64,000 nt of DNA. Origin: Escherichia coli. Its GTDB lineage: Bacteria > Pseudomonadota > Gammaproteobacteria > Enterobacterales > Enterobacteriaceae. The stretch lies in assembly GCF_030013205.1 (NCBI RefSeq), contig NZ_CP122648.1. One strand, written 5' to 3'. The notes under the pieces were generated by a model. It did not search any database, was not told the origin of the DNA, and saw only the letters and a program-made list of their open reading frames with translations. Made by a program: the position numbers and the translations under genes. Positions within the stretch are counted from its first letter, which is position 1. Every line of letters starts with the position of its first letter. Positions 46,272 through 46,832 of this stretch are shown piece by piece.

Positions 46272-46832
46272 ATGAAGGCAATTATATTTTTTGTTTCAAT
46301 ATTGATGTCTGCATTTTCTTTTGCAGGGCAAAATGTTAAATGCGAACTTCAATACTTTGGAGATAGCGATAAATTTAAGGTAACTCAGTTTTCTTTTATG
46401 GGGATTCCATCTGATTCATACCTTTATACCTGTGCCGACTGTGGAGGCATCCAGATAAACGTGTTCCCATCTATTCAGACTGTTGCTTCCTACTCATTTG
46501 AAAACAACATTGATTTCGAAAGGAAAATCAATGCTGAATACAACAGAAAAGACATAGCTAAACTTGAGATGGAAAACGTTACTCAAGGCGGGAGAATAAA
46601 ATATTCAATCACCGATACTGGTTTGGCAGAGTTTTACCCAGAGGGCAAAAAGATAAGCTACCTCTACTTTTTAGCCAAGCAACAAAATGGTAAAGAACAA
46701 GTAGGTTATTCAGGATTTGTTACCTCTAACGGGGATAAGTCATGCTCAATTATTGCGACATATCCAGGAAAAGAAATTTCTTTTCTGGGAAGTAAATCTT
46801 TAAGCTACTTTATGAATCATATATCAATGTAG
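46272..46832 (+). CDS. AT-rich accessory gene encoding a secreted 186-aa protein of unknown function
   Basis: Signal peptide MKAIIFFVSILMSAFSFA-GQ; sharp fall in GC relative to flanking virion genes; starts 2 nt after the core-operon stop. Confidence 0.55.
   Translation: MKAIIFFVSILMSAFSFAGQNVKCELQYFGDSDKFKVTQFSFMGIPSDSYLYTCADCGGIQINVFPSIQTVASYSFENNIDFERKINAEYNRKDIAKLEMENVTQGGRIKYSITDTGLAEFYPEGKKISYLYFLAKQQNGKEQVGYSGFVTSNGDKSCSIIATYPGKEISFLGSKSLSYFMNHISM

Follow-up and report, generated by a model that had tools for sequence, protein, structure and literature searches.

To our knowledge, only a few proteins stop phage DNA entry at the cell envelope. In phage T4, the small periplasmic protein Spackle, which is made with a signal peptide, blocks the tail lysozyme of a superinfecting phage. 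In phage P22, sieA lies behind ejection gene 16 and ahead of both the mnt-arc-ant region and the gene for the tailspike. SieA blocks entry, and the mutations that escape it map to the ejection proteins gp16 and gp20 (PMC10461980). Accessory genes between ejection and tailspike genes are already known in P22-like phages. Amongst bacterial proteins, Tsi3 inserts loops into the groove of an SLT-fold muramidase and thereby inactivates the enzyme, and its structural neighbours are 3hlz, Mog1p and PsbP (PMC3792639). Eag proteins of the same fold class bind the transmembrane helices of injected effectors, and DcrB affects the injection of phage DNA (bioRxiv 10.1101/2020.10.28.356139). Here we describe a gene for a 186-residue protein at positions 46272..46832 (+ strand) of a 64,000-nucleotide stretch of Escherichia coli DNA (contig NZ_CP122648.1, hereafter the window), where it directly follows the ejection-protein genes of a prophage of the epsilon15/phiV10 type (Uetakevirus) that lies beside guaA in the porcine enterotoxigenic strain ETEC4079.

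The locus resembles each of these systems in part. Like Spackle, the protein is small, phage-encoded and, by prediction, periplasmic with a signal peptide; unlike it, Spackle is helical and expressed early, and the two show no sequence or fold relationship. With P22 SieA the gene shares its place in an accessory region that separates the last ejection gene from the tailspike gene as well as its optional presence, and SieA, too, comes in several unrelated sequence types. In one related locus (L009) the order is an 845-residue protein gene, a gene for a 190-residue homologue, arc-like genes, ant and the tailspike gene. However, SieA has three inner-membrane transmembrane helices (PMC10461980), whereas the 186-residue protein is predicted to be soluble in the periplasm, has no detectable sequence similarity to SieA and lacks a promoter of its own; the searches found no homologue outside its own family. 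Tsi3, the immunity protein against the type VI muramidase Tse3 (PDB 4luq), is 10% identical and belongs to a type VI effector-immunity pair, not to a phage. Nor does the protein fall into the type VI immunity families represented by Tsi3, Tli4 and Rap1a, as it matches none of them in sequence and all of its adequately covered contexts are slots in epsilon15-like prophages. No member of its family matches the Eag/DcrB model (PF08786, formerly DUF1795); Eag proteins are cytoplasmic and without conserved cysteines, and DcrB is a host lipoprotein, both in contrast to the protein described here. In location it corresponds to phiV10 p21 and the other genes found in this slot, which are likewise bordered by the last ejection gene's stop codon and a conserved terminator and encode apparently envelope-targeted products, but of unrelated sequence (46-51-residue membrane proteins, 64-73-residue two-helix proteins, 123-residue secreted proteins, Rap1a-family members and lipoproteins). 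What appears to be new is the candidate for a soluble periplasmic protein of PsbP fold, the promoter-less plug-in architecture, and the breadth of this slot in epsilon15-like phages, which includes a member of a type VI immunity family.

Gene, predicted export and expression of the 186-residue protein

The open reading frame (ORF) begins with ATG, is annotated by RefSeq in genomes carrying an identical copy (WP_000643933.1) and encodes a member of PHROG 11983 (E 1e-130, 'unknown function'). As calculated from base composition, the chance of an open frame of 186 codons at 35.5% guanine plus cytosine (GC) is about 1e-6. Since the ratio of nonsynonymous to synonymous substitution rates (dN/dS) against close homologues is 0.10-0.13, the ORF is a real protein-coding gene under purifying selection. 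A first-pass annotation of the window had reported that the gene starts 2 nt behind an 850-residue internal virion gene and that GC content drops sharply there, and all of this holds true. The TAA of the upstream gene (46267-46269) is followed by 'TA' and the ATG at 46272, while GC falls from 0.57 (45850-46149) to 0.37 (46300-46599), or, over whole genes, from 0.549 in the 850-residue protein gene to 0.355 in the small one. The upstream product (43717..46269, +) matches PHROG 684 ('virion structural protein', E 1e-270), and its homologues, 24-87% identical, include phiV10 p20, also named 'virion structural protein'. It is the last protein of an ejection triplet, and its stop codon forms the upstream border of the slot. 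The small gene lies 10-19 GC points below its neighbours in each of the five diverged lineages examined; because this deficit recurs in every lineage, we regard low GC as a lasting property of the gene and rejected it as a sign of recent horizontal acquisition.

To assess export, we applied a rule-based check of the N-terminal layout to the protein with 19 homologues aligned. The N-terminus MKAIIFFVSILMSAFSFA, followed by GQ, contains one basic residue, a 15-residue hydrophobic core and the small residues S16 (-3) and A18 (-1), and thus reads as a predicted Sec signal peptide (codons 1-18, 46272..46325, +) cleaved after S-F-A18. This three-part arrangement (basic n-region, hydrophobic core, small -3 and -1 residues) is kept in 19/19 members despite differing sequences, no lipobox cysteine is present, and the signal peptide is the sole hydrophobic segment of the protein; the signal peptide of the first-pass annotation therefore stands as a prediction. 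In the mature part, every one of the 19 members has exactly four cysteines, the invariant C24, C54, C57 and C158. Two of them form the CADCGG element that had also been pointed out before, located within TCADCGG at residues 53-59, where the CxxC motif C54-A-D-C57 (46431..46442, +) sits, in the structural model, at the turn that joins strands 2 and 3. As both the signal layout and the four cysteines are found in all 19 members, Sec export of the protein to the periplasm is a well-supported prediction and disulfide formation there is argued for as well.

The arrangement of expression signals was surveyed in 59 related loci. A Shine-Dalgarno-like AGGT (46260..46263, +) lies within the last codons (L-G-K-stop) of the 850-residue protein gene, 8 nt before the ATG. 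The conserved end of the ejection gene, ...CTA GGG AAA TAA, supplies such a motif in 57/59 loci whatever the cargo that follows, and the start codon of the cargo is found 0-4 nt after the ejection-gene stop in 51/59 loci. Downstream, a terminator scan identified an intrinsic terminator with a 7-bp GC-rich stem and a T run (46846..46871, +), a 95% match to the 'terminator' feature of phiV10; it is the operon's own terminator and also occurs in phages without the gene. The cassette itself leaves no space for a promoter. The 2-nt gap, the Shine-Dalgarno motif inside the upstream gene, the presence of a terminator only after the ORF and the same layout in 51/59 loci indicate that the gene is probably co-transcribed with, and translationally coupled to, the late ejection genes. 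Of the features by which classical morons, self-contained accessory units of prophages, are recognized, atypically low GC and optional presence are found, whereas no promoter of its own was detected and the terminator belongs to the operon.

Between the stop codon and the terminator lies a perfect 12-bp palindrome, GTGACATGTCAC (46834..46845, no strand assigned), which is unique in the window and marks the downstream border of the slot. In 37/59 loci with unrelated cargo it abuts, overlaps or stays within 4 nt of the cargo stop codon, with the terminator following. The palindrome may anchor recombination when cassettes are exchanged, or it may be bound by a protein.

The position behind the ejection genes as a cargo slot

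Homologues of only 35-45% identity are likewise encoded directly after an ejection triplet (SLT protein, a protein of about 565 residues and one of about 850 residues) in five independent loci, contexts being judged only where the contig gave enough sequence; on one short contig, the homologue adjoins a gene for a SymE toxin. At one of these loci, the neighbouring 848-residue protein is 87% identical to its counterpart, the small protein merely 45%. In order to determine what else occupies this position, we took a census of 80 IMG/VR loci encoding a relative of the 850-residue protein, 76 of which had usable downstream sequence. The family is present in 16/76 loci, always with its start codon at -4 to +2 nt relative to the ejection-gene stop, and missing from the other 60. 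An ORF starting within 20 nt of the stop was found in 64/76 loci, and these ORFs fall into 13 unrelated clusters. The clusters comprise 64-73-residue two-helix membrane proteins (16 loci), 123-residue secreted proteins (13 loci), 118-127-residue secreted proteins (6 loci), 49-51-residue membrane proteins like phiV10 p21 (3 loci), multi-helix membrane proteins and two families of lipobox lipoproteins. Judged by reading N-termini and by a hydropathy window, 12 of the 13 look envelope-targeted by virtue of signal peptides, lipoboxes or transmembrane helices. Neither PHROGs nor NCBIfam gave a function for any of the clusters; in Pfam, the 118-127-residue family matches Rap1a (PF18602, E 1.5e-12), a periplasmic type VI immunity family.

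Since the same type of ejection protein occurs with different cargo, the cassettes appear to be exchanged through their flanks. The best explanation for the gene is, in our view, that it represents one allele of an exchangeable cargo slot that ends the ejection-protein operon of epsilon15/phiV10-like podophages. The recurrence of putatively envelope-targeted cargo beside envelope-breaching genes recalls the exclusion genes found beside entry genes in other phages.

One clade of the census (loci L068-L073, L078, L082 and L092 of IMG/VR), in which the last ejection protein is about 61% identical, has neither slot cargo nor accessory region, and the tailspike module comes next. In this clade the first ejection protein gave no Pfam SLT match, just a weak glucosaminidase hint. 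A link between cargo and SLT domain was nevertheless not used, because the cargo-less loci without SLT form a single clade from which the entire accessory region is missing too, which confounds the association.

The family itself seems almost confined to the slot after the ejection triplet. Clustering at 90% identity divides it into 17 groups, which come from Salmonella, Cronobacter, Citrobacter, Enterobacter, Klebsiella and Hafnia, to which the E. coli copies were added by a separate genome search. A search of 1.84 billion representatives returned nine matches, of which one (P0024, a 569-residue Gram-positive repeat protein, E 4e-6) was judged spurious. In E. coli, a 700-bp segment with the gene is present at full length in 55/5,426 complete genomes (about 1%), with carriers amongst pig enterotoxigenic, human and chicken isolates.

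Further searches placed the protein in no described family. In Pfam, neither the protein nor any of the 19 homologues matched the PsbP or DcrB/DUF1795 families even at E <= 0.1; Pfam as a whole, NCBIfam and PADLOC yielded no usable family or defence-model match, a profile search of PDB sequences found nothing relevant, and a viral structure library gave just two weak lipoprotein matches. WP_000643933 appears in no paper of the literature searched. The sole NCBIfam match, NlpE (E 0.033), was not taken as homology, as it rests on the signal peptide and a 'CADCxGI' hairpin motif common to both proteins. A relationship to a known virion component, which the first-pass annotation had named as an observation that would speak against its proposal, did not emerge from PHROGs (PHROG 11983, 'unknown function') or from the Pfam, PDB-sequence and phage-genome searches.

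The triplet begins with an 898-residue protein (39325..42021, +; PHROG 1044) that carries an SLT domain at residues 258-364 (Pfam PF01464, E 5.8e-17). The middle protein of 565 residues (42023..43720, +) belongs to PHROG 3003 and is syntenic in all related loci. RefSeq names it 'exodeoxyribonuclease VII large subunit' in ETEC4079, which, given PHROG 3003 and the matches to internal virion proteins, looks like an annotation error. Upstream of the triplet lies a gene for a core protein of the T7 gp14 family. The prophage is defective in the region 36711-38391, where RefSeq marks the major capsid, Bbp16 capsid-cement and tail genes as partial, and terminase and portal genes are missing. A junction near 37837 is found only in ETEC4079 among the 5,426 genomes. 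Strain K_EC180 carries a different, larger prophage deletion, yet an identical copy of the gene; sister strains with differing deletions share the same cargo gene at 100% identity despite the loss of head and packaging genes. Intact contigs of about 40 kb with the gene are present in IMG/VR.

Predicted fold and possible roles

The AlphaFold model of the 186-residue protein is confident (predicted local distance difference test, pLDDT, 86.7; predicted template modelling score, pTM, 0.81), except for an unpacked N-terminal helix of low confidence that coincides with the signal peptide (pLDDT <50 for residues 11-19). The predicted fold meets the description of a PsbP/Mog1/DUF1795-type alpha-beta(-alpha) sandwich with a central antiparallel sheet. 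It is common to the periplasmic type VI immunity proteins Tsi3, Tli4 and Tli5, the PldA immunity protein, the Eag chaperones and DcrB. With sequence identities of 5-12% to these neighbours, the modelled likeness to PsbP-type and type VI immunity proteins is one of fold and not of family membership.

The first-pass annotation had suggested a periplasmic exclusion factor. This idea is plausible and gains indirect support from the unrelated, apparently envelope-targeted proteins of the slot, from the fold shared with periplasmic immunity proteins and from the position equivalent to that of P22 sieA. In its most specific form, which we hold tentatively and at somewhat less than an even chance, the protein would be a late-co-expressed periplasmic binder that neutralises an envelope-penetrating component of incoming phages, either the SLT domain or those parts of the ejection proteins that insert into the membrane. 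The gene would be transcribed with, and translationally coupled to, the last ejection gene, as its architecture suggests; the product would be exported by Sec and its signal peptide cut after A18; a mature protein of about 19 kDa would then fold in the periplasm into the predicted sandwich, with disulfides probably forming among the four invariant cysteines. More speculatively, its binding might neutralise the peptidoglycan-cutting SLT domain or the membrane-inserting ejection-protein segments of the incoming phage, for which the plugging of an SLT-fold muramidase by Tsi3 and the block to entry by P22 SieA and T4 Spackle are precedents. The infected cell, and possibly the lysogen, would be spared superinfection and the envelope damage that could trigger premature lysis. 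Export, fold and architecture rest on evidence, whereas the target is a guess.

A number of observations weigh against exclusion as the function. PsbP is a better structural match than any immunity protein, and the PsbP-type fold is a generic binding scaffold. When the mature protein was modelled by AlphaFold as a linker fusion with the SLT domain, from nine paired sequences and with pTM as the read-out instead of an interface score, both parts folded without confident docking (pTM 0.48), which lends no support to direct binding. A tblastn search of 50,697 deposited phage genomes found no copy of the protein, and no PADLOC defence model matched it. The dN/dS of about 0.1 among close copies carries no arms-race signature. 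Moreover, cargo of any kind can be accommodated at the end of an operon, and prophage accessory genes in general often encode envelope proteins. Finally, a promoter scan of about 470 nt upstream, within the 3' end of the 850-residue protein gene, detected no promoter-like site, and lysogen expression, which is usual for exclusion genes, is unsupported because the gene has no promoter of its own. Of the two modes of expression offered by the first-pass annotation, co-expression with late genes thus agrees with the gap, the Shine-Dalgarno motif, the terminator and the 51/59 loci, while expression from the lysogen finds no such backing. A weak promoter candidate, TTGACC-17-TATCAG (46173-46201), was rejected, as it varies at synonymous sites across loci.

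Its fold, which recurs in Tsi3, Tli4 and the immunity protein of PldA, would also suit an orphan immunity protein guarding the lysogen not from phages but from toxins that other bacteria deliver and that act in the periplasm (bacteriocins, for example, or peptidoglycan hydrolases and lipases of type VI systems). Another allele of the slot belongs to the Rap1a immunity family, and small size, diversity and envelope targeting are typical of immunity proteins against type VI toxins and bacteriocins, as they are of the contents of the slot. We nevertheless regard this explanation as unlikely: no homologue was found beside a type VI effector and the 1.84 billion representatives held only 9 matches, the place after the ejection genes is kept down to 35% identity, and guarding a lysogen requires expression there, for which the scan found no promoter.

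The tight coupling to the late virion operon, ahead of its terminator, together with strong purifying selection would also suit a periplasmic accessory protein that is made late for the lytic cycle of the phage itself, acts on lysis timing or on the cell wall at egress and is unrelated to exclusion. This we consider quite unlikely, given that the gene is optional, with 60/76 related loci lacking the family and unrelated proteins standing in its stead, that the prophage has a full lysis cassette elsewhere, at 53454-55251, with genes for two holins, a GH19 endolysin and a DUF2514 protein, and that the gene stays 100% identical in prophages devoid of head and packaging genes.

Improbable in our estimate is a role as host-fitness or virulence cargo without a part in defence, for instance in binding a periplasmic or outer-membrane component of the host and altering envelope physiology. 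The low-GC accessory region with other small secreted or membrane ORFs adjacent, the occurrence in pig enterotoxigenic, human and chicken E. coli and the fold shared with the host protein DcrB are in line with such cargo, but the Pfam, NCBIfam and PDB-sequence searches found no similarity to any known virulence factor, and the gene stays linked to the ejection module in several genera of enterobacteria. A cytoplasmic, Eag-like chaperone with an uncleaved N-terminal stretch, shielding hydrophobic segments of the ejection proteins before packaging, is very improbable in view of the canonical signal layout and exactly four invariant mature cysteines in 19/19 homologues, the failure of every member to match the DcrB/DUF1795 Pfam model and the replacement of this optional gene by secreted, lipo- or membrane proteins.

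A broader proposal that joins the slot to superinfection exclusion strikes us as doubtful. It holds that a plug-and-play slot, with the ribosome-binding site in the final ejection gene on one side and the palindrome and terminator on the other, swaps unrelated envelope-guard cassettes, and that the 186-residue protein would be the first soluble periplasmic superinfection-exclusion protein of PsbP fold, akin to a type VI immunity protein turned on the phage ejection machinery (SLT domain or membrane-inserting helices).

Neighbouring genes and implications

The genes beyond the terminator include further small ORFs with export or membrane signals. A convergent ORF at 46869-47102 (-), 77 residues as listed and 53 in RefSeq, combines a signal peptide with a tail rich in Gly and Cys (...GRCQHDSDTAADGSRCGGRSADSRPGGGGIR). 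Its product, found widely among phiV10-like phages, falls into PHROG 14503 ('membrane associated protein') and shows a weak match to the His-Xaa-Ser repeat protein HxsA3 (E 0.022); HxS-repeat effectors have been linked to periplasmic blocking of phage DNA entry in a 2026 paper (PMC13128918). In the accessory region, a low-GC ORF of 288 residues with N-terminal hydrophobic helices (47124-47990, -; PHROG 3630, unknown function) is accompanied by a 69-residue ORF (47990-48199, -; PHROG 5739), and PADLOC gave no defence-model match for either. A 242-residue ORF (49395-50123, +), with a membrane helix at its N-terminus and two CxxC repeats of zinc-ribbon-like type at its C-terminus, resembles the endonuclease VII and Lar-like restriction-alleviation families (PHROGs 1035, 2633 and 5558).

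Outside this region, a 2,680-residue ORF (13479-21521, +) precedes xseA/guaBA; its counterpart is a giant 'adhesion domain-containing protein', annotated as frameshifted in K_EC180. A 45% identical homologue of the 186-residue protein follows the ejection triplet on a Salmonella-type contig (L004/L005, positions 1-16558), where the triplet is flanked by an integrase on one side and a satellite-like block (AlpA, DUF927 primase) on the other, and head genes are not seen. The arrangement might represent a prophage in decay beside a P4-like satellite, or a satellite carrying ejection genes.

If the gene is ordinary accessory cargo, little is lost; no more than about 1% of the complete E. coli genomes carry it. 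If the exclusion reading is true, a soluble periplasmic blocker with an immunity fold would add a new mechanism of exclusion and provide a handle on how the ejection proteins of podophages cross the periplasm. At least 12 uncharacterised, putatively envelope-targeted families are gathered compactly in the slot, in a defined expression context, and its Rap1a-family allele raises the question of whether phages and bacterial toxin systems may share one pool of periplasmic inhibitors.
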